Assembly: GCA_002010065.2 (NCBI GenBank) | Contig: MTMD02000002.1 | Location: 352,001-416,000, forward strand | DNA length: 64,000 nt | DNA from: Candidatus Pyrohabitans jungbluthii | GTDB taxonomy: Archaea > Hydrothermarchaeota > Hydrothermarchaeia > Hydrothermarchaeales > BMS3B | Direction of reading: 5' to 3' | Part shown: one piece after another, positions 1,738 through 23,546 of the stretch | How positions within the stretch are numbered: position 1 is the first letter of the stretch | Layout of the letters: every line of letters starts with the position of its first letter | The notes under the pieces: model-generated | The model's database searches: none | The model's input: only the letters and a program-made list of their open reading frames with translations | Told to the model about the DNA's origin: nothing | Program-made: the position numbers and the translations under genes

Positions 1738-2070
1738 ATGAGGTTAGGCATTGTAGAACATTTCGATGCCGCGCATTATTTACCAGAGCACAAAAGCTGT
1801 GGAATAATGCACGGTCACACGTATAAGGTTGAGGTAATCCTTGAGGGCGAGCCCAAGGATGGGATAATTATTGACTTCGCGGACGTTAAGGCAGCTCTTC
1901 GCGAGGTACTCGCTGAGTACGACCACCGCGTGCTCAACGAGCTTCTCCCTTACCCGAGTGCAGAGAACATCTGCATAAGCATTTATAAGAAGCTCAAGAC
2001 CAAGCTGAACTTCCCTCTCACTGTACGCCTGTGGGAGGGCGAAGGCAAGTGGGTGGAGATTGGAGACTGA
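1738..2070 (+). CDS. queD: 6-carboxy-5,6,7,8-tetrahydropterin synthase
   Basis: FDAAH, C..MHGHTY, DHRVLN, SAEN, LWE; SD GAGGTGA upstream. Confidence 0.92.
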   Translation: MRLGIVEHFDAAHYLPEHKSCGIMHGHTYKVEVILEGEPKDGIIIDFADVKAALREVLAEYDHRVLNELLPYPSAENICISIYKKLKTKLNFPLTVRLWEGEGKWVEIGD

Positions 2071-2797
2071 GGTGAGGACAACGCAGGCTGTGATCCTCGC
2101 CGGGGGTAAGGGGAAGAGGCTCCAGCCCTTTACCAGTGCTGTGCCAAAGGCGATACTCCCGGTAAGGGGCAAAGCCGTGATTCTCCACCAGCTCAAAGCG
2201 CTGGAGGAGGCAGGTATTGAGGAGGTGCTGGTGGTTAGGGGCGCGCAGGGAGAGAAAATAGAGCGCTTTCTAAGCTCTCAAGGAAAGAGGGTGAAGTTTA
2301 TCACGCAACCTAAGCCTCTTGGCTCCGCCCACGCTCTCAGTCTGGCGCTCCCCCATCTCCAGGGTGACTTCGTCGCCTTGGCGTGCGATTACGTCTTTCC
2401 GTCCGCGCACCTTAAAGAGCTTCTCCGCATGCACCATTCGGCGAAGGCTGCGGCTACGCTGAGCCTGAAGCGCATGGACAGGGATAAAATAAAAGAAGCC
2501 AGCACCGTTATGCTCAGGGAGGGCAGGGTGGTTAGGATAGTGGAAAAGCCCAGCGAAGAGGAGATACTCAGCGAGATTGCGGCGGCTCCGCTATATGTTT
2601 TCAGCCCGCAAGCCAAGCCCTTCATCGCCAGCGTTGAGGTCTCGCCTCGAGGAGAGTATGAGATTCCCAGCGCGATTCAGAACATGATAAACGCCGGTTT
2701 AGAGGTTCGCGGAGTGCTCACACAGGAGTGGGCACACCTCTCGCGCTGGCAGGACCTGCTCAGGCTGAACTTTCCCTATCTCGCAGACTACCTCTAA
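2060..2797 (+). CDS. Sugar-phosphate nucleotidyltransferase family protein
   Basis: VILAGGKGKRLQP, PK, Q..PLGSAHA, VEKP, SPRGEYEI. Confidence 0.85.
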   Translation: METEVRTTQAVILAGGKGKRLQPFTSAVPKAILPVRGKAVILHQLKALEEAGIEEVLVVRGAQGEKIERFLSSQGKRVKFITQPKPLGSAHALSLALPHLQGDFVALACDYVFPSAHLKELLRMHHSAKAAATLSLKRMDRDKIKEASTVMLREGRVVRIVEKPSEEEILSEIAAAPLYVFSPQAKPFIASVEVSPRGEYEIPSAIQNMINAGLEVRGVLTQEWAHLSRWQDLLRLNFPYLADYL

Positions 2798-3348
2798 TAC
2801 TCAAGCTTATCCAGCATCTCCCGCAATCGCGTGAGTCTCGCGGAGAAGCCCTCCCATTCCCCAAGCTCTATCGGCTTATCCAGCGCATCTGAGAAATTCA
2901 ACCTCAGAAAGTGGCTGTAGTGCTGGTGGTACTCCAGAGCAAGGTCGAAGTAGCGCATCTCAAGCTTCTTGGGCGGGTGGTACAGGAGCTTTATGTCTTC
3001 CTCAAGCTCAGCCGCCAGGGTTTTAATCTCAGCCAAAATGCGACCTGCCACCCTCTCCCAGGCAACCTCCTCAAAACCCCGCTTGGTTAAACCCTCCTCC
3101 AGTAGGGCCTTTTTAACCTCCACCTTTGAATCGCCCTCAAAATTAGGTCCATGCACAAAAGCCAAGCCACGAAGGGTGCTTTCCTCTGGCTCAAGTGCAA
3201 GAAGCACCTTATCTTTAGCGAGGTTCTCAAGGTTCCTGTTCAGCGTCTCGCGGTTAACCTCGCCCTTTATCCTTGAAATTACCTTTTCCGCCTCTTCTGG
3301 AGAAAAAAGAAATAGTTCGCTGGCGATGGCAAGGATGAGCTCTCTCAT
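2794..3348 (-). CDS. Hypothetical protein
   Basis: 184-aa ORF with host-like composition, 4-nt overlap with upstream gene. Confidence 0.6.
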   Translation of the reverse strand: MRELILAIASELFLFSPEEAEKVISRIKGEVNRETLNRNLENLAKDKVLLALEPEESTLRGLAFVHGPNFEGDSKVEVKKALLEEGLTKRGFEEVAWERVAGRILAEIKTLAAELEEDIKLLYHPPKKLEMRYFDLALEYHQHYSHFLRLNFSDALDKPIELGEWEGFSARLTRLREMLDKLEY

Positions 3349-3602
3349 GTCTTTATGGTCTCAAGTTCACTGGAAATGTTCCAGATTATTGTTCTTGCAT
3401 GCAGAGGCAGGTTCCTGTCGTTGCTTATCTCCTCCAAGATATAGATGGCAGAGCTTACCCTTACCCCTAAATCCTCCTTTTCGTTCATTAATGTGTTTTT
3501 CGCCTCCTCCGCGGCTCTGCGAATGTTGCGGGGAATGGATGTATCCTCAATCACCTGGTTCAGAACTTCGCAAATCTGTCTTACCTTTTCCTCGTGTTCC
3601 AT
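3345..3602 (-). CDS. UPF0147 family protein
   Basis: D.SIPRNIRRAA, LEEISND.NLP.HART.IW; SD GGAGGTGA. Confidence 0.88.
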   Translation of the reverse strand: MEHEEKVRQICEVLNQVIEDTSIPRNIRRAAEEAKNTLMNEKEDLGVRVSSAIYILEEISNDRNLPLHARTIIWNISSELETIKT

Positions 3603-3690
3603 GTAATCACCTCCAAAAAGGCGGAAAAGTAATTCGACGAGCAGGTCACTACCTTATATATTTTTTACGTTATAAAAAATTACTGGTAGT

Positions 3691-4053
3691 ATGGAAAAGG
3701 AGGCTACGATTAAGAAGATGGCTGAGCTGCTGCTGAGCAGGGCTACAATGCTCGCTTACCACTGCCCCAACTGCGGCGCGCCGCTATTCGAGAAGGAAGG
3801 TAAGGTGCTGTGCCCTACCTGCGGCGAGGTCAAGGTGATACGGGAGGGCGAAGAAGCGGAGGGGAAAGAGGAGAGCATCCCTCAGGCTAAGGCAGAGGTT
3901 GAGCCCCAGGAAGGGGATGAGATTCTCCTGGAGAAGAGGAAGGAATTGCTTCTGCGCCTGAAGGAGGAGAAGGATTTAAGGGTTATACTGGATATTCTGG
4001 ATGCGATAAAGCGGATAGATGAGATTATGAAGAGTAAAACTTCAGATAGGTAA
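3691..4053 (+). CDS. UPF0148 / autoantigen p27-like Zn-ribbon protein
   Basis: MAELLL..ATML..HCPNCG.PLF...G.V.CPTC. Confidence 0.85.
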   Translation: MEKEATIKKMAELLLSRATMLAYHCPNCGAPLFEKEGKVLCPTCGEVKVIREGEEAEGKEESIPQAKAEVEPQEGDEILLEKRKELLLRLKEEKDLRVILDILDAIKRIDEIMKSKTSDR

Positions 4054-4122
4054 TATTTAGTAAAATTTAGATTCCAGTAAAAAATAACAGAGGGGACCTG
4101 CTTTTAATAGAAAACTTCTGAA

Positions 4123-4704
4123 TTAGTTAATAAGATCACGCAATCTCTCTATTCTCCTATCTAAAGATTGATAGCTGTTATACTGAACATCCTCGAGGCT
4201 GTGAAGAGGATAGACGCGATTCTCAAGGGCGTCTCCGAATACAAGGTCGCAGAGCAGGGAAACCCTTTCATACCTTCTGCTGAGGAGATAAAAGGTATAG
4301 CCGAGGCAGCCACTTCTTCTCGGGTCATGGTCATGCCAGAAAAAGCCGCCTCCCATTAGAATTTGCTTTGGGGCAAAGCTATTAATAAAATTAAAGAACC
4401 TTCTCCAGCCGAAGAAGCCCACGGGTCTTGGGCTATCAGCAAAGGTTTCCACAAAATAAAACTCTCTCCAAGGAGCAAGTCTGCCGAAATGTTCTGCGCT
4501 TCTCTCAATCTTCCCCTTCTCCTCAAGCACAACAATAGGCCCATTAAACCGGCGCAGAAACTCCGCAAGGTTCCTGTAGTAGTCAGCGAGTAGAGGGCTC
4601 TTCTGAAGGAAGAGGGGGTGCACGAGAATTGCGATATTTTCTGCTCTGCTCGGTGGATAGCCTTTTAGTGAATATATTCCTTTATTGAGCTTAAATAGCC
4701 TCAT
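4123..4704 (-). CDS. Hypothetical protein
   Basis: 193-aa ORF directly downstream of glyS; no recognised family. Confidence 0.5.
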   Translation of the reverse strand: MRLFKLNKGIYSLKGYPPSRAENIAILVHPLFLQKSPLLADYYRNLAEFLRRFNGPIVVLEEKGKIERSAEHFGRLAPWREFYFVETFADSPRPVGFFGWRRFFNFINSFAPKQILMGGGFFWHDHDPRRSGCLGYTFYLLSRRYERVSLLCDLVFGDALENRVYPLHSLEDVQYNSYQSLDRRIERLRDLIN

Positions 4705-4714
4705 TACGCAGCAC

Positions 4715-6424
4715 CTAAGAGAGCAGCTCTGGGAAGCTCTTTTTCCCCTCTATCAAATCACATAAAATCTCCGCCACTTCGCCTCTTGGTACGCGCACCT
4801 GCTGCGCTGAGTCGCGCTCCCTTATCGTGACCGTCTCATCTTCAAGGGTGTCGAAATCTATGGTTACCGCGAAGGGCACGCCTATCTCGTCCACGCGAGC
4901 ATAGCGCCTGCCTATGGAGTCGCTGGCGTCGTAGAGCGCGAGAATGCCAGCACGTTTAACCTCATCGAATATCTCCCTCGCCACCTTTACAAGCTCCTCG
5001 CGGTTGAGCAGCGGGAACACCGCCGCCTTCACCGGCGCCAGCCTGGGGCTGAGCCTCAGCACGTTCTTGCCCTCTCGCTGGTAGTAGGCGTTTTCAAGCA
5101 CGCAGTAAAAGATGCGGTCAATCCCAAAGCTGGGCTCAATAACGTGGGGGATGAACTTCTCACCGGTTATCGTCTCCTCCACCTCTTTTACCTCAGCGTG
5201 CTCCCGCGTAATGGTCACCTTCTCTTCAGCGACGCTAATCTCAACGCTACCCTGCTCGGCGAAGCGCTCCACTTCGCTCTCGGGAAGCTCCTTCAGTGCC
5301 TCCGCAACCTTCCCCGCGAGGCGCTTAAACTCGGGCCCGAGCTTTGACATTTTCGGCTCTAGCACAAGGCGCCTGCGCTTGATTGGCTCGGGAAACTGAC
5401 GAAAGGCGCGCAGCTCAACGCCACTGTGCTTTTCGTGCGCCTTTAAGTCGTAATCTGTTCTGTCAGCTATACCCACTACCTCAATCCAGCCGAAACGTTG
5501 CGTTCGCACCTCAGCGTCCCAGCAGTCAGCGGCGTAGTGAGCCATCTCCTCGCGGAGGTGCTGCCTGAAGCGCAGCTTTTCGTAGGGTATCCCCAGCTCA
5601 AGCAAGAAGCGCTGGGTGTGCACTAGATAATAGCACAGAAACTCATGCTTCACAATGCCGCGCTCTACCGCCTCCCTCGCGGTGAGTTCCACCACATCCT
5701 CCTGTTCCTGAGGCAAGAGCCTGAGCTTCTCCTCGGCGTAGCGTGAGAAGTTGGGGTGCGTTTTGTCCTTGGGGTCTATGAATATCTCCACCTCAGCTTG
5801 GGTAAACTCACGCAGACGAATTAAGCCCTGCCTCGGCGAAATCTCGTTTCTGTAAGCTTTGCCTATCTGCGCAACGCCGAAGGGCAGCTTCTTGCGGTAG
5901 AAGGAGTAAAGCCTGGGGAAAAGAATGAACATGCCCTGCGCTGTCTCAGGGCGCAGGTAGCCCACCTTCTTCCTCCCCGGTCCAATGTAGGTCTTGAACA
6001 TAAGGTTATAGCTGTAAACCTCGCTGAGCTTGCCCCCGCAGTCTGGACATCGCAGCTTATGCTCGCGTATAAGCTTATCCAGCTCCTTGAAGCTCAGCCC
6101 GTCGGTTTTTATATCCAGGGCTGCGCTGATCAGATGGTCTGCGCGAAAAGCTGAGCCGCACTTCTCGCAGCTCACCAGAGGGTCGACGAAGTTGCTCACG
6201 TGCCCAGAGGCTATAAACACATCCTCAGGTGAAATCGTGGGAGAGGAAATTTCAAAGAAGCCCTCCTCCACGACGAAGTAGCGACGCCATATATCTTCCA
6301 AGTTCTTCTTCAGCGCCGCCCCGAGAGGCGCGTAGTCATAGAATCCACTAACCCCACCGTAGATCTCATAGCTCGGGTTTATGAAGCCCCTTCTCAGGGC
6401 TATCTCCATTACGTCGCCGCTCAT
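4715..6424 (-). CDS. glyS: Glycine--tRNA ligase (archaeal/eukaryotic type)
   Basis: LRPETAQG, YRNEISPRQGLIRLREFTQAE, VIEPSFGIDR, anticodon domain SIGRRYAR.DEIG. Confidence 0.96.
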   Translation of the reverse strand: MSGDVMEIALRRGFINPSYEIYGGVSGFYDYAPLGAALKKNLEDIWRRYFVVEEGFFEISSPTISPEDVFIASGHVSNFVDPLVSCEKCGSAFRADHLISAALDIKTDGLSFKELDKLIREHKLRCPDCGGKLSEVYSYNLMFKTYIGPGRKKVGYLRPETAQGMFILFPRLYSFYRKKLPFGVAQIGKAYRNEISPRQGLIRLREFTQAEVEIFIDPKDKTHPNFSRYAEEKLRLLPQEQEDVVELTAREAVERGIVKHEFLCYYLVHTQRFLLELGIPYEKLRFRQHLREEMAHYAADCWDAEVRTQRFGWIEVVGIADRTDYDLKAHEKHSGVELRAFRQFPEPIKRRRLVLEPKMSKLGPEFKRLAGKVAEALKELPESEVERFAEQGSVEISVAEEKVTITREHAEVKEVEETITGEKFIPHVIEPSFGIDRIFYCVLENAYYQREGKNVLRLSPRLAPVKAAVFPLLNREELVKVAREIFDEVKRAGILALYDASDSIGRRYARVDEIGVPFAVTIDFDTLEDETVTIRERDSAQQVRVPRGEVAEILCDLIEGKKSFPELLS

Positions 6425-17002: not shown

Positions 17003-18949
17003 ATGGGACAAAAAGTGCAAATGCAGCAGGATTCGACTGACATTGCTCTCTTCGTTAAGGTCAGTGAGGGCGATGTGATAACCTGGGATAAAAGCAGGAT
17101 TGTGAAGTCACTGCTCAAGGAAACCACGATAGATGAGGCTACCGCACACCTAATCGCCGACAGGGTTGAGAGGATTATCCGCGACTCTGGTATTGAGTTC
17201 ATCACAGGTCCGCTAATCCGCGAGATCGTTAACGCTGAACTCATAAAGCTCAAGCTTGAGGAGCAGCGCAAGCAGTACACCCGCCTTGGTATGCCAATCT
17301 ACGACGTTGAACAGCTCATAACAAAGCAGAACAAGGAAAATGCCAACGTGCCTCATGGGCCAGAAGCGACCAACCTGAGCTTAGCCGAGAGTATAAAGAA
17401 GCAGTACGCTCTGCTAAAGGTGTTCTCACCCGACGTGGCACTCGCCCATGAGCGGGGCGATATTCACCTGCACGACTTAGGGTTTATAGACCGCCCTTAC
17501 TGCTCAGGTAATAGCATCGAGTACGTGAAGAAGTTCGGTCTCAACCTGCCCAACGCTCTTTCAATTTCAAAGCCAGCGAAGCATCCCGAGGTGCTGGTTC
17601 TCCACCTCATAAAGTTCTCAGCCGCCCTGCAGGGCGTGTTCGCGGGTGCAATAGGCTGGGATGCGGTGAACCTCTTCATGGCACCCTACTTCGTGGGGAA
17701 GTCGGACGAGGAGCTGGAGCAGGTCGCGCAGATGCTGGTCTTTGAGTTCGCCCAGCAGGCGGTTGCCAGAGGGGGACAGAGCATATTCAGCGATCTCAAC
17801 CTCTACTGGGAGGTGCCAAAGCACTTCGCCGACGTCGAAGCTATTGGCCCTGAGGGCAAGTACACGGGCAACACCTATGAGGATTACCTGCCCGAGGCGC
17901 AGCGCTTCGCGAGGGCTTTGATAAAGGTGTACATGCAGGGCGACGGCATGGGCAGGCCCTTCTTCTTCCCAAAGCCCCAGCTCCACATAACTGAACGCCT
18001 CTTCCGCACCGAGGGCTACGAGGAGTTTCTGTACGAGATAGCCCAGCTCTCCTCTGAGCGGGGCAACAGCTATTACGTGTTCGACCGCGGCGAAACCGCG
18101 AAGATTAGTGAGTGCTGCCGCCTTGCGTTCAAGCTGGATGAGAATGACCTGCGCGATGCCAAGACGCCCTGGAAGATGCGCTATTCTGCAATGCAGAATG
18201 TGACAATAAACCTGCCTCGCATTGCCTACGAGGCGAATGGCAACGACGACCTGCTGTTTGAGATTCTCTCGCAGAGAATGAAGCTCGCAGCCGAGGCGCA
18301 CGTTGCCAAGCGTGGCTTCATAACCAGGCTTCTTAACCTAGGGCTTCGCGGACCCCTCGGTTTGCTTGCCATGGATAAAGACGGCGAGCCCTACTACCGC
18401 CTGCACCGCGCCACCTTCCTCATGGGAATGCTGGGCTTGAATGAGCTGGTGCAGTACCACCTGGGCGAGGAGATGCACGAGAGCAATTATGCCCTTCGCT
18501 TTGGCTTGAAGGTCATAGCCCACATGAACAAGGAAAGTGAGCGCCTGAGCGAGGAGTACGATATGCGCTTCGTGCTGGAGCAGACTCCAGCGGAGAGCAC
18601 CGCTTACCGCATGGCAAAGCTCGACTTGGAGCACTATCCCAGCGAGACGCGAGAGGTGGTGAAGGGTAGCATAGAGCGCGGCGAGGTCTACTATACCAAC
18701 TCCACCTACCTGAACATCTCCGCACCAATATCGCCAATAGAGCGGGTTAAGAAGGAAGGGATGTTCCATCCCATGATTCACGCTGGCAGCCTCACCCACA
18801 TCTGGCTGGGCGAGGCGAAGCCTGACCCTGAAGCAATAGCCAAGTTCGTAGTGCGCACCTTCAAGCACACCACCAACGATCAGATAGCCTTCTCCCCCGA
18901 GTTCTCCTCATGTTTAGACTGTGGGCGGGTAGATCGCGGGCTGTGGTAG
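17003..18949 (+). CDS. nrdD: Anaerobic (class III) ribonucleotide reductase, ATP cone plus catalytic barrel; lacks glycyl-radical tail
   Basis: GDIHLHDL, YCSG, SECCRL, EQTPAES, YYTNS; ends after the first Zn pair CLDC. Confidence 0.92.
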   Translation: MGQKVQMQQDSTDIALFVKVSEGDVITWDKSRIVKSLLKETTIDEATAHLIADRVERIIRDSGIEFITGPLIREIVNAELIKLKLEEQRKQYTRLGMPIYDVEQLITKQNKENANVPHGPEATNLSLAESIKKQYALLKVFSPDVALAHERGDIHLHDLGFIDRPYCSGNSIEYVKKFGLNLPNALSISKPAKHPEVLVLHLIKFSAALQGVFAGAIGWDAVNLFMAPYFVGKSDEELEQVAQMLVFEFAQQAVARGGQSIFSDLNLYWEVPKHFADVEAIGPEGKYTGNTYEDYLPEAQRFARALIKVYMQGDGMGRPFFFPKPQLHITERLFRTEGYEEFLYEIAQLSSERGNSYYVFDRGETAKISECCRLAFKLDENDLRDAKTPWKMRYSAMQNVTINLPRIAYEANGNDDLLFEILSQRMKLAAEAHVAKRGFITRLLNLGLRGPLGLLAMDKDGEPYYRLHRATFLMGMLGLNELVQYHLGEEMHESNYALRFGLKVIAHMNKESERLSEEYDMRFVLEQTPAESTAYRMAKLDLEHYPSETREVVKGSIERGEVYYTNSTYLNISAPISPIERVKKEGMFHPMIHAGSLTHIWLGEAKPDPEAIAKFVVRTFKHTTNDQIAFSPEFSSCLDCGRVDRGLW

Positions 18950-18966
18950 AACAGGAGGTGAAAGAA

Positions 18967-19437
18967 ATGGAAGAAGACATAATAAGCAACACGTGCCCCC
19001 ACTGTGGAAGCCACAACGTGGAGTACATAACCCGCGTAACTGGCTTCTTCTCTAAGGTGGGGAGCTGGAATAAGGGCAAGATAGCCGAACTCCGTGACAG
19101 GAGGCAGGCTATAGAGTGGAACAAGCGAAGCTTTCTGGGCAACGCTGGAAGCGTGCCTACCACGGCGACGCAGCGCAGGATAAAGCTCTTCTGGAAGCAG
19201 AACTGCCCGCGCTGCCCTGCTGCCAAGGAGCTTGCTGCAAAGCTGGAGGCGAAGGGTATTAAGGTGGAGTACTACGACGTGGAGAGCGTCGAGGGTATGG
19301 CAGAGGCAGGAATGCACTCTGTATTAGCGACGCCGAGCATCGTCGTGGTTGACGGCGAGGATGAAGAGATCGCCGCGTGGCGTGGCTCCGTGCCCAGCGA
19401 GCAGGAGCTTGCCGCGGCGGTGATGGGTGCAAACTAA
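18967..19437 (+). CDS. NrdD C-terminal glycyl-radical module fused to thioredoxin/glutaredoxin-like domain
   Basis: SD GGAGGTGA then ATG 18967; CPHCGS, ITRVTGF, WNKGK.AE..DR; then CPRC and TP motif. Confidence 0.88.
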   Translation: MEEDIISNTCPHCGSHNVEYITRVTGFFSKVGSWNKGKIAELRDRRQAIEWNKRSFLGNAGSVPTTATQRRIKLFWKQNCPRCPAAKELAAKLEAKGIKVEYYDVESVEGMAEAGMHSVLATPSIVVVDGEDEEIAAWRGSVPSEQELAAAVMGAN

Positions 19438-19470: not shown

Positions 19471-19908
19471 GTGGGATATGGAGCAATAAAAGTTGAGGAC
19501 ATAGAAATAATTAAAAAAATACTCCTACGCGAGGGGTTTTATGAGCCTATATTACAAACATGGAAAGATGGTCAAGTATTTGGCTTAGTTAAACCTTTAA
19601 ATGAACTGTTTGAAGTACATATACGAGCTTATGAAGATAACACCCTTGATGCAGAAGTGGAGTTATCTAGAGAATATTTAGAACATATTTTTAATGAAAG
19701 TAGGCCATATTATGGATTTTTAATTGAAATACTAAGAGATTATAAGGTACCATACAGAGTTATAAAATCGATCCCTCCAGATCCAAAGCTCATCTCAGTA
19801 CCAGAGATATTAATCAAATGGAAGCCACTAATGGCACTAGCTGTGATATTCGTTGGAATTGCTTTAATTGGAACATCAAATAAGCAAAATAATGGCATAT
19901 CTGTTTAA
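19471..19908 (+). CDS. Hypothetical protein with C-terminal TM helix (AT-rich)
   Basis: SD GGAGG plus GTG; composition differs from flanking nrd genes. Confidence 0.6.
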   Translation: MGYGAIKVEDIEIIKKILLREGFYEPILQTWKDGQVFGLVKPLNELFEVHIRAYEDNTLDAEVELSREYLEHIFNESRPYYGFLIEILRDYKVPYRVIKSIPPDPKLISVPEILIKWKPLMALAVIFVGIALIGTSNKQNNGISV

Positions 19909-19927: not shown

Positions 19928-20635
19928 ATGCAAATCAAAGGCGTGCTCGAGACGAGCTTTGTAGACTGGGACGGGAAGATAGTCTCCACCATCTTCCTCC
20001 CCAGCTGCAACTTCCGCTGTGGCTTCTGCCATAACCACAAGCTGGTACTCAGCCCTGAGAGCTTTGAGGATGTGCCCTTAGACTATCTCCTTCGCTTCTG
20101 GCGGCGCAACCGCGATTTCCTCGACGGGGTGTGCATAACCGGTGGCGAGCCTACGCTGCACAAGGATTTACCCCAGCTATGTGCCACGATTAAGGAGCTT
20201 GGGTTGGAGGTGAAGCTGGATACGAACGGCTCCAACCCGGAGATGCTGCGCTCGCTTATCAAAGAAAAGCTTGTTGACTACATCGCCATGGATGTTAAGG
20301 CACCTCTGCGCGCCAAGGATTATTCCCGCGTGGCTGGCGTGGATATAAATGGCGAGCTTCGCCGCATAGAAAAGAGCATCGACATTATAATAACCTCCCG
20401 CATCGACCACGAGTTCCGCACCACTGTGATTAAGGGTGTGCACGGCGAGGATGAGGTCGAAGCTATAGCGCGCTCTTTGCAGGGTGCGAAGCGCTACGTG
20501 CTCCAGAAGTTTGTGCCTCACCTGGCGATGAGCGAAGAGCTTCGCAGGCTGGCGATGTTCAGCGATGAGGAGATGGATGCCCTGGTAGAGGCGGCGAGAC
20601 GGTATGTTCCTAATGTGAAGTGGAGGGGGAAGTGA
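19928..20635 (+). CDS. nrdG: Anaerobic ribonucleotide reductase activating enzyme (radical SAM)
   Basis: SFVDWDGK, CNFRCGFCHN, ITGGEPT, KLDTNGS, AMDVKA, EFRTT. Confidence 0.9.
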   Translation: MQIKGVLETSFVDWDGKIVSTIFLPSCNFRCGFCHNHKLVLSPESFEDVPLDYLLRFWRRNRDFLDGVCITGGEPTLHKDLPQLCATIKELGLEVKLDTNGSNPEMLRSLIKEKLVDYIAMDVKAPLRAKDYSRVAGVDINGELRRIEKSIDIIITSRIDHEFRTTVIKGVHGEDEVEAIARSLQGAKRYVLQKFVPHLAMSEELRRLAMFSDEEMDALVEAARRYVPNVKWRGK

Positions 20636-20720
20636 TAGAAGAAGGATTGAGAAATGGGCCAATTTAGAATAGGAGAGGCGCATCATAAAAAATCGCATTT
20701 CATTATTGTAATTTTAGCAG

Positions 20721-22499
20721 TTGTGTAAAGTTTCAAGGGATATGGAAACTAAAAAAATCCAAAATAAGAATAAAAATAAGAAAATTAAGAGGAACATAGT
20801 TGAATATCTAAAAAATTTTTGTAATAGGCACAATAAGTTAGTAACCGGAGCTATTGGTTTTGTATTAGGTATCGTACTAACTTCGTATTTATCTCCAATA
20901 TTAGCACATATTTTCCCTTCTATTGATAAAGAACCACCAACAATTATTGAGGTTACTCCATTACCAAATTCAAACCTTTTCAATCTATCAGATATAAGAG
21001 TCAAAATTGAGGATAGTGGAGGATCTGGTTTAGACTTAGAGAGTTCTTTCATAAAGTTAACTGGAGCATATTCGGGAGAGATTAATGGTACCAAAATAAG
21101 CAAAGATAAGGTCTTAATTTTTATACCAAGCGAAAAATTAAAACCTGATATGTATACTGCTGAGTTTTTTATTAGAGATAGAGCTGGTAATCTAAAAAAA
21201 GATTTTTCAAGATTTACATTGTTTGAAAAACCAAAACTCAGATTTGACTTTTACGAAATGCCTCACTTATATTCTGAGAATGACGATGTCCATGGAATTA
21301 AATGGAAAGACAGATATATTGCATACAGTTTCGCTATAATAAATGAGGGCGATACAGTATCTTTAGAAGATATTGAAGTGACTTTTGATTTTCCAGGAGT
21401 AATACTAAACTATATTGTTATGGCAAAGACAAGCTGTGTAAATTGTAATATTATAGAAGCTCAATCAACTCCTTCAATAGTTTATGGAGGAAAAACAGAA
21501 ACAAACTTTTCTACATGTCAATTGATTATTGATATTGAAAAACTACCTCCTGGTGGTATCTTTGCGGGCATGATATTCATAGACCCTCAATATACGCCAA
21601 AATCTAATGAAGTAATCACATTTTGTGAATTTGGAAGTAGATATTATGGACATTATTTTTATAAGCAATTAGGGTGGACTCATCAAGGCAGTATTGAAGG
21701 AGAAATAAAGATGAGTCGGGATGCCTGGATAAATAAGGGAATTTTTTTGAGAAATATGGGAATAAAATATAATTTTCCAGAATATGTCAAAAATTCCTTA
21801 AATGCTTTTGATAATGCTATTAAAATCGATAAGAATAGTAGTGTCGCCTGGAATGAAAAAGGCATTTCACTTGCATATTTAGGGAATTTTTCAGGCGCAA
21901 TTCAAGCGTTTAATAAATCTATAAACATAAGTCCTAATTTTGAAAAACCATATTACAACATTGGCCTGATTTATTTTAAACTCAAAAATTGCGATATTGC
22001 AACAAATTATGCAAATAAAGCATTAGAAATCAACCCAAATTACGAAAAAGCGAACGAAATAATAAAAAATTGTGAAAAAGAAAATATAATTGCCCCAAGA
22101 GATATAAAAAATAAAATAAAAGATATAAATGAAAACGAAGGAACAATTATATTTACCACTAGTGACAGCAATTTATTCGAATCTGTTGGAGATATAATAA
22201 TATTTGATTTTCCAGTCGGAAGTTCTAGATTTATATTAAGAAGAGATGCGAATTTTAATTTATTTTTTGAGCATATAAGCATTCAAACAGGTATAAGAGT
22301 AGCTAAGATAAATCTAAGCGAATTTAAAAAGTGTGATAAACTCTTTATTGCACTAACATGGTCAAGAAAGGAAAATAAACTGTCTTTGGGTTGTTTAGGT
22401 GATAGAAAATTGGTCACAGAAAAGGCGATACAAATTGATAATAAAAATCTATTAATAAAAAATTTTTTAGAAGTACAACAATTTTTACAAGTAAAATAA
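20721..22499 (+). CDS. Membrane-anchored protein with Ig-like segment and TPR repeats (AT-rich)
   Basis: N-terminal TM; DKEPP/DSGGSGLD/DRAGN Ig-like signature; AW..KG and YYNIG TPR repeats. Confidence 0.7.
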   Translation: MCKVSRDMETKKIQNKNKNKKIKRNIVEYLKNFCNRHNKLVTGAIGFVLGIVLTSYLSPILAHIFPSIDKEPPTIIEVTPLPNSNLFNLSDIRVKIEDSGGSGLDLESSFIKLTGAYSGEINGTKISKDKVLIFIPSEKLKPDMYTAEFFIRDRAGNLKKDFSRFTLFEKPKLRFDFYEMPHLYSENDDVHGIKWKDRYIAYSFAIINEGDTVSLEDIEVTFDFPGVILNYIVMAKTSCVNCNIIEAQSTPSIVYGGKTETNFSTCQLIIDIEKLPPGGIFAGMIFIDPQYTPKSNEVITFCEFGSRYYGHYFYKQLGWTHQGSIEGEIKMSRDAWINKGIFLRNMGIKYNFPEYVKNSLNAFDNAIKIDKNSSVAWNEKGISLAYLGNFSGAIQAFNKSINISPNFEKPYYNIGLIYFKLKNCDIATNYANKALEINPNYEKANEIIKNCEKENIIAPRDIKNKIKDINENEGTIIFTTSDSNLFESVGDIIIFDFPVGSSRFILRRDANFNLFFEHISIQTGIRVAKINLSEFKKCDKLFIALTWSRKENKLSLGCLGDRKLVTEKAIQIDNKNLLIKNFLEVQQFLQVK

Positions 22500-22827
22500 A
22501 TAATTTACTATCTTATGAAACAGCCGGGCTCTTTTATCTGATGCCTGGTACTGTCAGAGCTATATTTTTCTTTTCTTTTTCTCCCTGAAGTATAATCAGT
22601 ATCAAAATTGCATTCCCATACAATTTTGTTCTAACACCTCACTTTTTCAATGTGCGCAGAATATCCCTTGCCCTCTGGTTTACTAAGTCCTCTGACCTAA
22701 ACATAATCTTAGTTTAATTTTGGTGTTAAAATTTAAACGCAGTTAAGGAAAAGTCAGGTTCGTCAGACCGGCTATTGAAGTGGTGCCGTAACCTTCTTTA
22801 AGTCGGATGTTAAAAAAGTTAGATATT

Positions 22828-23127
22828 ATGAGTATGAAAACAAGACAAGAGATAATCAAAAAACTGAGAGAGGAACTTCCTTATCTCAGGGAGAAATTTA
22901 ATGTCAGTAGAATAGCTCTTTTTGGCTCATACGCCAGGGGGGAACAGAGAGAAGGTAGCGATATAGATATTCTGGTAGAGTTTGAGAAACCAGTTGGATT
23001 TATAAAGTTCATAAAGCTTGAAAACTATTTAAGCGAGAAACTCGGGGTAAAGGTTGAGCTTGTAACTCCAGATGCTCTCAAGCCTCTAATAAAGCCTTCT
23101 ATTATCAGGGAGGCTGTTTATGTCTAA
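22828..23127 (+). CDS. MNT minimal nucleotidyltransferase antitoxin
   Basis: LFGSYARGEQ..SDIDILVEF; overlaps HEPN gene; exact start uncertain. Confidence 0.88.
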   Translation: MSMKTRQEIIKKLREELPYLREKFNVSRIALFGSYARGEQREGSDIDILVEFEKPVGFIKFIKLENYLSEKLGVKVELVTPDALKPLIKPSIIREAVYV

Positions 23128-23479
23128 AAAGAGGGACATCAGACTATTTTTAATGGATATAATCGAGGCTATTGAAAATATAATGGAATACACTCATGGA
23201 ATGGACTATGAAGATTTTATTAAGGATAAGAAGACCATGGATGCTGTCATAAGAAACCTTGAAATTGTAGGAGAAGCTGTTAAAAGCATGCCTGAAGAAA
23301 TTAAGAAGGATTATCCCGAGGTTGACTGGAAGGAAATAGCTGGAATGAGAGACAAGTTGATACACGAGTATTTTGGTGTAAGCTATCAGATTGTATGGGA
23401 AACTATAAAAGGAGACCTCCCCGCTTTTGAATACCAGATAGAAAGGATATTGGAAGATATTGCTCAACAAAAAGAATAA
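23120..23479 (+). CDS. HEPN (DUF86/HepT-like) ribonuclease toxin
   Basis: DAVIRNLEIVGEA, R-x4-H-x-Y motif RDKLIHEY. Confidence 0.9.
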   Translation: MSKKRDIRLFLMDIIEAIENIMEYTHGMDYEDFIKDKKTMDAVIRNLEIVGEAVKSMPEEIKKDYPEVDWKEIAGMRDKLIHEYFGVSYQIVWETIKGDLPAFEYQIERILEDIAQQKE

Positions 23480-23546
23480 CTCTAAAACTCTTCTCATATT
23501 CTCTAAATAAAACTTCCTATTTCAATGATGGATTTGAATTCCGTGG

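Follow-up and report, generated by a model that had tools for sequence, protein, structure and literature searches.

Candidatus Pyrohabitans jungbluthii, an archaeon of the Hydrothermarchaeota, in all likelihood makes a working class III (anaerobic) ribonucleotide reductase (RNR) from two polypeptides, a body of 648 amino acids (aa) and a 156-aa subunit that carries the glycyl-radical domain together with a thioredoxin-like domain. The genes lie in a 64,000-nucleotide (nt) stretch of contig MTMD02000002.1 (positions 352,001 to 416,000 of the forward strand), which we call the window and to which the coordinates below refer unless a locus is named. The split of the nrdD gene is real and conserved, and from the sequences it is very likely that the two chains function together. 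The original prediction, made from the letters of the window, had described an nrdD stop, a Shine-Dalgarno (SD) sequence, an ATG at 18967 and a 156-aa open reading frame (ORF) with the motifs CPHC, RVTGF and CPRC, all of which proved exact. Its reading of a two-chain enzyme is supported by conservation, by purifying selection on both ORFs and by the presence of the sole radical tail on ORF2.

The divided nrdD gene

ORF1 (the body) covers positions 1-517 of the 562 positions of the Pfam NRDD profile (PF13597) with 417.8 bits (cut-off 26.2) and matches TIGR02487, the NCBIfam model of class III NrdD, with 371.9 bits (cut-off 326.35). Residues 8-46 of ORF2 (the small subunit) correspond to positions 522-560 of the NRDD profile (41.9 bits, cut-off 26.2), so a single profile is divided between the two ORFs with four positions missing between them. 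Residues 71-150 of ORF2 match Thioredoxin_3 (39.6 bits, cut-off 24.8), and the Glutaredoxin family was also matched. The barrel domain, the finger-loop cysteines and a nearby NrdG of class III NrdD are all present, but the glycyl-radical loop RVxG[FY], expected on the same polypeptide as the barrel, sits on ORF2. The features of the locus are as follows.

17003..18949, + strand: nrdD body (large subunit, 648 aa) with ATP-cone, 10-stranded barrel, finger loop and first zinc knuckle, without a glycyl-radical tail
17063..17278, + strand: ATP-cone-like N-terminal domain, body residues 21-92, a weak match to PF03477 (21.7 bits, under the cut-off of 25.8)
17501..17503, + strand: Cys167 (RPYCSG) of the body, nearly invariant among 31 bodies and opposite T. 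maritima MPYC
18113..18118, + strand: finger-loop double cysteine C371-C372 (SECCRL), the predicted thiyl-radical/redox pair, opposite SCCRL of T. maritima NrdD
18578..18580, + strand: Glu526 in VLEQTPAES, candidate active-site glutamate of a thioredoxin-type NrdD, opposite T. maritima NIEQVPAEK
18911..18922, + strand: first zinc knuckle, C637-L-D-C640; C637 and C640 are invariant and make contacts in the complex model
18947..18949, + strand: stop codon of the body, TAG (TAA in relatives)
18954..18961, + strand: SD sequence GGAGGTGA of the small subunit, GGAGGT in 12 of 12 loci
18967..19437, + strand: small subunit (156 aa) with second zinc knuckle, glycyl-radical domain, linker and thioredoxin-like domain
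18994..19005, + strand: second zinc knuckle, C10-P-H-C13, invariant in 22 fusion proteins and making contacts in the complex model
19033..19047, + strand: glycyl-radical loop R23-V-T-G26-F27, invariant, opposite P. copri NrdD 697-737; Gly26 is the predicted radical site
19177..19416, + strand: thioredoxin-fold domain, residues 71-150, with C80-P-R-C83 at 19204-19215 and cis-Pro T122-P123; predicted local distance difference test (pLDDT) about 88
19928..20635, + strand: nrdG, the radical-S-adenosylmethionine (radical-SAM) activase of class III RNR (TIGR02495, 205.9 bits, cut-off 131.15)

The last body residues before the stop are CLDCGRVDRGLW, and the C-terminus of ORF1 is given as ...SSCLDCGRVDRGLW. 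After 17 nt the adjacent small-subunit gene starts with the ATG at 18967, in a frame that differs from that of ORF1; its product reads MEEDIISNTCPHCGS..ITRVTGFF... and, further on, ..NCPRCP... We searched 41 genomes, among them that of the window, in all six frames and recovered full-length ORF2 in the own genome and in 10 of 10 other genomes of the family at 60-96% identity (bodies, 83-99%); the open frames in the family span 159-201 aa and none is fused to a body. We then compared the junction at 12 loci, one from the own genome, one from each of the 10 family members and one from a genome of another family (G013). The stop (TAA or TAG) after ..CGR[VT]xRGL, the GGAGGT SD sequence and the ATG are kept at all 12, while the offset of ORF2 from the frame of ORF1 is 0 in two loci, 1 in three and 2 in seven.

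A sequencing or assembly frameshift, or a recent pseudogene, might be suspected because the two ORFs of the window differ in frame, because the frame of ORF2 is open for about 45 codons upstream and because the genome holds a second RNR. However, the same split with three different offsets excludes an assembly frameshift and also recoding. Contigs assembled from public DNA runs (X4 is possibly the source of this DNA, and X6 gave no coverage) agree: record 5 of contig X7 crosses the junction (18688-18993) with no differences, record 12 of contig X8 crosses it (18605-19004) with 18 substitutions, no gaps and TAG changed to TAA, and no insertions or deletions at the junction are listed in the bridging contigs of two independent runs. 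The ratio of nonsynonymous to synonymous substitution rates (dN/dS), reported for pairs with unsaturated dS, is far under 1 (0.09-0.17 in the tail and 0.14-0.25 in the linker and thioredoxin part), and the catalytic motifs are all intact. We therefore regard an artefact or a pseudogene as practically impossible, in keeping with the original prediction, which had argued against a sequencing frameshift and had advised looking for the same split in related genomes.

Programmed frameshifting or stop read-through could in principle restore a single chain, and in L003 and L006 the ORFs are indeed in frame and one TAA apart. In L009 and L010, however, the ORF2 frame itself has a stop downstream of the body stop, so that a ribosomal shift cannot fuse the ORFs there. 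The remaining loci would demand shifts of differing sign, the SD sequence and ATG ahead of ORF2 are kept in every locus compared, and in some genomes of candidate phyla radiation (CPR) bacteria body and tail lie on separate contigs. The chance that a single chain is made in this way is very slight. A split intein or trans-splicing was also considered and rejected, as just nine residues precede Cys10 and no intein family is listed for ORF1 or ORF2.

Zinc site, active site and radical supply

Unsplit relatives, for example CLDCGQTSRGLSETCPKCGS, show the pattern CxxC-x9-CxxC. The window body ends just past RGLW and the small subunit starts nine residues ahead of CPHC, which places the cut within the loop that joins the two zinc-ribbon knuckles. 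In T. maritima NrdD this ribbon follows the last barrel strand and precedes the radical loop (PMC4493059). The four cysteines by which the zinc ribbon of NrdD is recognised in sequence are divided two and two between the chains, and they are retained in every examined split form of this type. We infer that the two knuckles share one zinc ion as an inter-chain clasp, as the original prediction had proposed; the retained cysteines and the complex model both support this arrangement.

When ORF2 was modelled alone, the thioredoxin domain was confident (pLDDT about 88) and the tail had pLDDT values of 40-60. Models of the heterodimer, a test that the original prediction had suggested, were made with body, small subunit and a zinc ion and gave interaction prediction scores from aligned errors (ipSAE) of 0.84, 0.86 and 0.85 against 0.01 for the best control, a result that may reflect the model's memory of intact NrdD. 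That mark was attained by 58 of 80 solved complexes and by 2 of 110 mismatched pairs. The partner pLDDT was at least 81, and contacts agreed between runs to at least 87%. The closest pairs, C637-C10 and C640-C13, and the pairing of strand 631-640 with residues 17-23 together make up an inter-chain zinc ribbon in the model, which as such shows likeness rather than binding. Docking of CPRC on the active site was not seen in the complex model, and we draw no claim about it.

In a profile of 31 bodies, ECCRL and LEQTPAES aligned with SCCRL and IEQVPAEK of T. maritima, and the formate-type enzymes (T4, 9D3X, P. copri) have YSTP or LATP where the window body has its glutamate. We take Cys167 to be the lower redox cysteine of the barrel, and we presume that the glutamate that defines thioredoxin-type NrdD is to be placed at Glu526. 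NrdD2 is defined by a third cysteine and an active-site glutamate (PMC4493059); given our choice of glutamate, the body would accordingly be a thioredoxin-type NrdD2.

The small subunit would bring both radical and reductant, as the original prediction had proposed, and three observations support this: its domain content, its invariant CxxC and cis-Pro, and the thioredoxin-type active site of the body. Invariant across 22 fusion proteins (148-173 aa) are C10, C13, RVTGFF, C80, C83, T122-P123 and WRG. The thioredoxin part resembles the units of Pyrococcus disulfide oxidoreductase and the Mj0307 thioredoxin (PDB 1J08, 1A8L, 1FO5), and the fold, CxxC and cis-Pro of a thioredoxin are all present. 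No NrdH model is among the 15 families listed for ORF2, whose motif is CPRC; NrdH-redoxins have CVQC and WSGFRP, the latter only loosely resembled by W-R-G-x-x-P of ORF2. A thioredoxin gene lies directly downstream of nrdD in unsplit relatives, and the genome encodes four thioredoxin-reductase-like proteins (240-325 bits).

ORF2 holds the sole glycyl-radical tail that PF13597 finds in the genome, which is 99.95% complete, so the small subunit is an obligate partner of the body rather than a spare. A PFL-type (pyruvate formate-lyase) tail, which we take to be the Pfam family Gly_radical, was not seen, the matches of ORF2 at E<=0.01 comprising NRDD and redoxin families only. ORF2 is nevertheless a small autonomous glycyl-radical protein, as GrcA/YfiD is (PMC13450708), and might on that account be thought to rescue an otherwise complete NrdD. 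GrcA/YfiD coexists with a complete parent enzyme; here, however, the genome has no complete NrdD, the body ends ahead of the tail, and the second NrdD paralogue is without tail, zinc site and catalytic cysteine. A spare-part role of this kind is thus very improbable.

That second paralogue (L085 2458-4512; contig C5 of G000) has two ATP-cones and is accompanied by an activase-like gene (L085 4466-5203). In this genus it is without an equivalent of Cys167, the CC finger loop, TPAES, the zinc ribbon and the radical tail, and by its sequence it looks like a catalytically dead pseudo-enzyme. Its open frame is kept in five genomes (67-96% identity) beside the radical-SAM gene, and elsewhere in the order, in other families, members of this lineage are complete NrdDs with thioredoxin and NrdG genes downstream. 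Sharing of the radical subunit with this second body was considered and rejected, as the alignment shows that the paralogue has also lost its counterpart of Cys167, the CC loop and TPAES. A class II NrdJ is encoded in the genome as well.

Separate radical subunits in other lineages

Three arrangements of the genes were found around the zinc-site split. Unsplit loci have the order NrdD, thioredoxin, NrdG (L021, L022, L031). Split loci with a free tail of 49-77 aa have the order body, tail, thioredoxin, NrdG in a Micrarchaeota record (L034) and in G013, and body, tail, NrdG, thioredoxin in four Saccharibacteria/Patescibacteria records. The split with a tail-thioredoxin fusion occurs in genome_contigs in only eight loci (L013-L020), all of the window's family. 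These groups indicate that the fusion came after the split, through loss of the stop between the tail and thioredoxin genes. A FastTree phylogeny of 81 bodies, 15 of them split, needs two changes to the split state. One marks an archaeal clade (11 rows, support 99), the other a clade of four Saccharibacteria rows (support 100) with unsplit sisters. An approximately unbiased (AU) test on 30 rows under LG+G4 rejects a single split clade (delta log-likelihood 94.9, p 5.4e-7) for a group that was defined after the first tree had been seen. The zinc-site split arose at least twice. As a separate observation, Margulisiibacteriota/Saganbacteria carry two complete nrdD genes in tandem (L023, L026-L029, L038, L042, L045, L050, L051, L053, L056, L058, L061, L062, L066), the copies of which sort into two separate clades of the tree.

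Free tails are found in bacteria of candidate phyla and in tiny archaea of the DPANN type. PF13597 is carried by 35 of 43 short matches, and all 13 short proteins examined start with methionine and hold CxxC and RVTG[FY], some of them on contigs of up to 1.2 Mb. We searched five further genomes (G041-G045) with PF13597. Three from CPR bacteria (G041, G042, G044) have a tail-less body and a tail on separate contigs; in G043 a complete NrdD occurs together with a tail-less body and a free tail; and G045 (Nanohaloarchaea) combines a body extending to NRDD profile position 540 with a free, cysteine-less radical domain of 107 aa. Also seen were stand-alone radical domains (98-150 aa) in which a cysteine-less N-terminal domain precedes ITRVTGFFSK (P0040, P0043, P0047, P0052, P0054; L081, L083, L084), in records labelled Thermoplasmata and Nanohaloarchaea. 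The free tails of P0063, P0067 and P0070 begin M..T[VT]RG[LI]xExCPxCGS and include the RGL loop, being cut a few residues earlier than that of the window.

Scanning 1.84 billion representatives with HMMER gave 766 matches at E<=0.001. Among the best 150 are three NrdD proteins with a redoxin on the chain of the tail (P0270, P0274, P0283), one of them cut at its N-terminus. A redoxin fusion thus exists on unsplit NrdD too; a word search had found a redoxin Pfam in none of 90 long matches. Four NrdD proteins of 1093-1426 aa contain intein domains (P0153, P0156, P0157, P0283), and P0283 adds the C-terminal redoxin fusion to these.

The best 150 also include ten small proteins of a second kind, with an N-terminal helix, TEVYTRIVGYYRS and a CPxCP thioredoxin domain. 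This family has at least 594 loci in genome_contigs. Among the best 80 (L094-L173), 79 are titled as spirochaetes, including Treponema lecithinolyticum ATCC 700332 and Treponema sp. OMZ 840; a separate ORF for the NrdD body lies just upstream in 72 and the body is in the same ORF in none; NrdG lies downstream in 68; and the radical motif is followed by CxxC in all 80. In L124, for instance, the body spans 1776-3938, the small protein 3983-4549 and NrdG 4559-5269. The spirochaete bodies examined (L096, L105, L115, L124) have a complete CxxxH...CPxC zinc site and a charged helix at the end, and five small subunits (L096, L105, L115, L124, L131) start with a helix. By sequence, the spirochaete cut lies past the complete zinc site and so at a different place from that of the window. 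The clasp is probably different from the zinc clasp as well, and the helices that face each other at the new ends could form a coiled coil. The spirochaete bodies are 27-31% identical to the window body; from this low identity we take the spirochaete split to be of independent origin.

Two neighbouring regions of the window complete the description. Between the small subunit and nrdG lies an AT-rich insert (GC 0.35) with a 145-aa ORF (19471-19908) that has a C-terminal hydrophobic stretch and counterparts with 42-48% identity in L016 and L017. We rejected it as an extra partner, since it matched no family at E<=1 save for one chance-level match and is absent from the closest relatives (L013-L015). 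The region 20500-23500 has a GC content of 0.26-0.37 against about 0.55 around it, encodes a 592-aa protein with tetratricopeptide repeats and an Ig-like domain, and is probably foreign DNA.

Function of the two chains and comparison with known systems

The following mechanism would fit these findings. The zinc knuckles on the two chains would share one zinc ion and form an inter-chain beta-ribbon that keeps the radical loop inside the barrel. NrdG would install the radical on Gly26 of the small subunit, the tethered CPRC domain would re-reduce the active-site disulfide after every turnover, and one of the four thioredoxin-reductase-like flavoproteins would in turn re-reduce the CPRC domain. 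Both the zinc clasp and the reductant built into the small subunit are well-grounded predictions. More speculatively, the oxygen-labile part may be a separate and cheap protein that is activated off the enzyme and swapped after damage; we hypothesize that small subunits are exchanged and the enzyme repaired in this way, and the replaceable subunit of the original prediction belongs with this hypothesis.

Several points weigh against this account. Structures of intact NrdD have been solved, so the score of the complex model may be a memory of single-chain NrdD, and in that model the thioredoxin domain contacts the body through residues 107-120 and 132 and not through CPRC. The four thioredoxin-reductase-like genes score under the NCBIfam cut-off of 343, and an FTR-like ferredoxin:disulfide reductase (PF02943) was not found in the organism's own genome. 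Because a class II NrdJ is present, the split class III enzyme need not be essential. Two-chain function, metal binding and the radical are predicted from sequence and model.

The two chains may alternatively be the product of neutral fission, in which the zinc ribbon tolerated a stop and a new start in one of its surface loops and drift then fixed the change. The radical module would then dock independently and the chains would act 1:1 as the old single chain did, without exchange, repair or activation off the enzyme. The location of the cut in a loop is consistent with this, as are the adjacency of the genes, which are probably co-translated. The entire radical domain of P. copri NrdD undocks as a rigid body in cryo-electron microscopy (PMC11226230), which makes a separable radical domain plausible and is equally in keeping with neutral fission. 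However, fission of this kind has happened independently more than once, three of the five further genomes (G041, G042, G044) have body and tail on different contigs, and a separate-chain fusion of radical tail and thioredoxin arose in two unrelated lineages. We therefore consider neutral fission unlikely, though a serious contender; the recurrence suggests an advantage without proving one.

With rather less than even confidence, we propose that class III RNRs have repeatedly evolved a two-component form. A small exchangeable cartridge would carry the radical (and, in two unrelated lineages, the reductant), be activated by NrdG off the body, dock by a shared zinc site (archaea, CPR bacteria) or a pair of helices (spirochaetes) and be discarded and replaced after cleavage by oxygen. 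If so, class III would have its own equivalent of the separate radical subunit known from class I, and spare-part logic would for the first time be found beyond formate lyases. Glycyl-radical enzymes are taken to bear the radical at the C-terminus of their own chain. In the RNRs described here a distinct gene, kept under selection, encodes the radical domain; this holds in several independent lineages, in two of which the domain is also fused to its reductant. This offers a natural system for asking how an activase reaches a buried glycine, whether bodies exchange radical domains, what repairs oxygen damage and how class III enzymes of the thioredoxin type are reduced again after turnover. Bench testing is possible because cultured Treponema strains carry a version. 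The finding bears on annotation too: no Pfam or NCBIfam model for the small subunits was found, and the sources label them NrdD or leave them nameless.

The two-chain form varies a known enzyme, class III RNR, and belongs to a wider pattern that is apparently undescribed. No description of a split class III RNR of a cellular organism was found in the literature outside subscription papers and supplements. The only related cases that the searches turned up are phage nrdD genes into which introns or endonucleases have been inserted (PMC3653736). The background that the original prediction gave on NrdD, its use of redoxins and GrcA agrees with the relevant passages of PMC4493059, PMC9176816 and PMC13450708.

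Single-chain NrdD (phage T4 1H78, T. maritima 4COI/4U3E, P. copri 8P23; also 9D3X) belongs to the same family by profile and is alike in barrel, finger loop, zinc ribbon, RVxG[FY] radical loop and neighbouring NrdG, whereas the window chain is cut between the zinc knuckles and its radical tail is on a second protein with a thioredoxin fold. GrcA/YfiD is likewise a small free glycyl-radical protein that must dock into a large barrel protein. However, GrcA replaces the damaged tail of a PFL that has its own, whereas the enzyme of the window has no tail but ORF2, which is of the NrdD and not the PFL tail family, contains half of a zinc site and is fused to a redoxin. According to passages of a June 2026 review, spare-part proteins are known for formate lyases only, and the case of other glycyl-radical enzymes is undetermined (PMC13450708).

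NrdJa/NrdJb of Pseudomonas aeruginosa, described as a unique split RNR in a free-living organism, is also cut near the C-terminus; its large chain is catalytic, and its small chain is required for turnover and mediates reductive dithiol exchange (PMC4520616). It differs in being a class II (B12) enzyme whose small chain has neither a protein radical nor a fused thioredoxin fold. In Facklamia ignava NrdB a glutaredoxin is fused to the class I radical subunit, so that there too a redoxin is joined to the radical-bearing subunit of an RNR (PMC6187632), but this is a ferritin-like metalloprotein with an N-terminal fusion, and the catalytic gene is unsplit. The thioredoxin- or NrdH-dependent class III subtypes NrdD2/NrdD3 share the third finger-loop cysteine, the glutamate and, in unsplit relatives, a redoxin gene adjoining nrdD (PMC4493059; PMC9176816 Table 1); their redoxin is a separate soluble protein, whereas that of the window is covalently joined to the radical domain.

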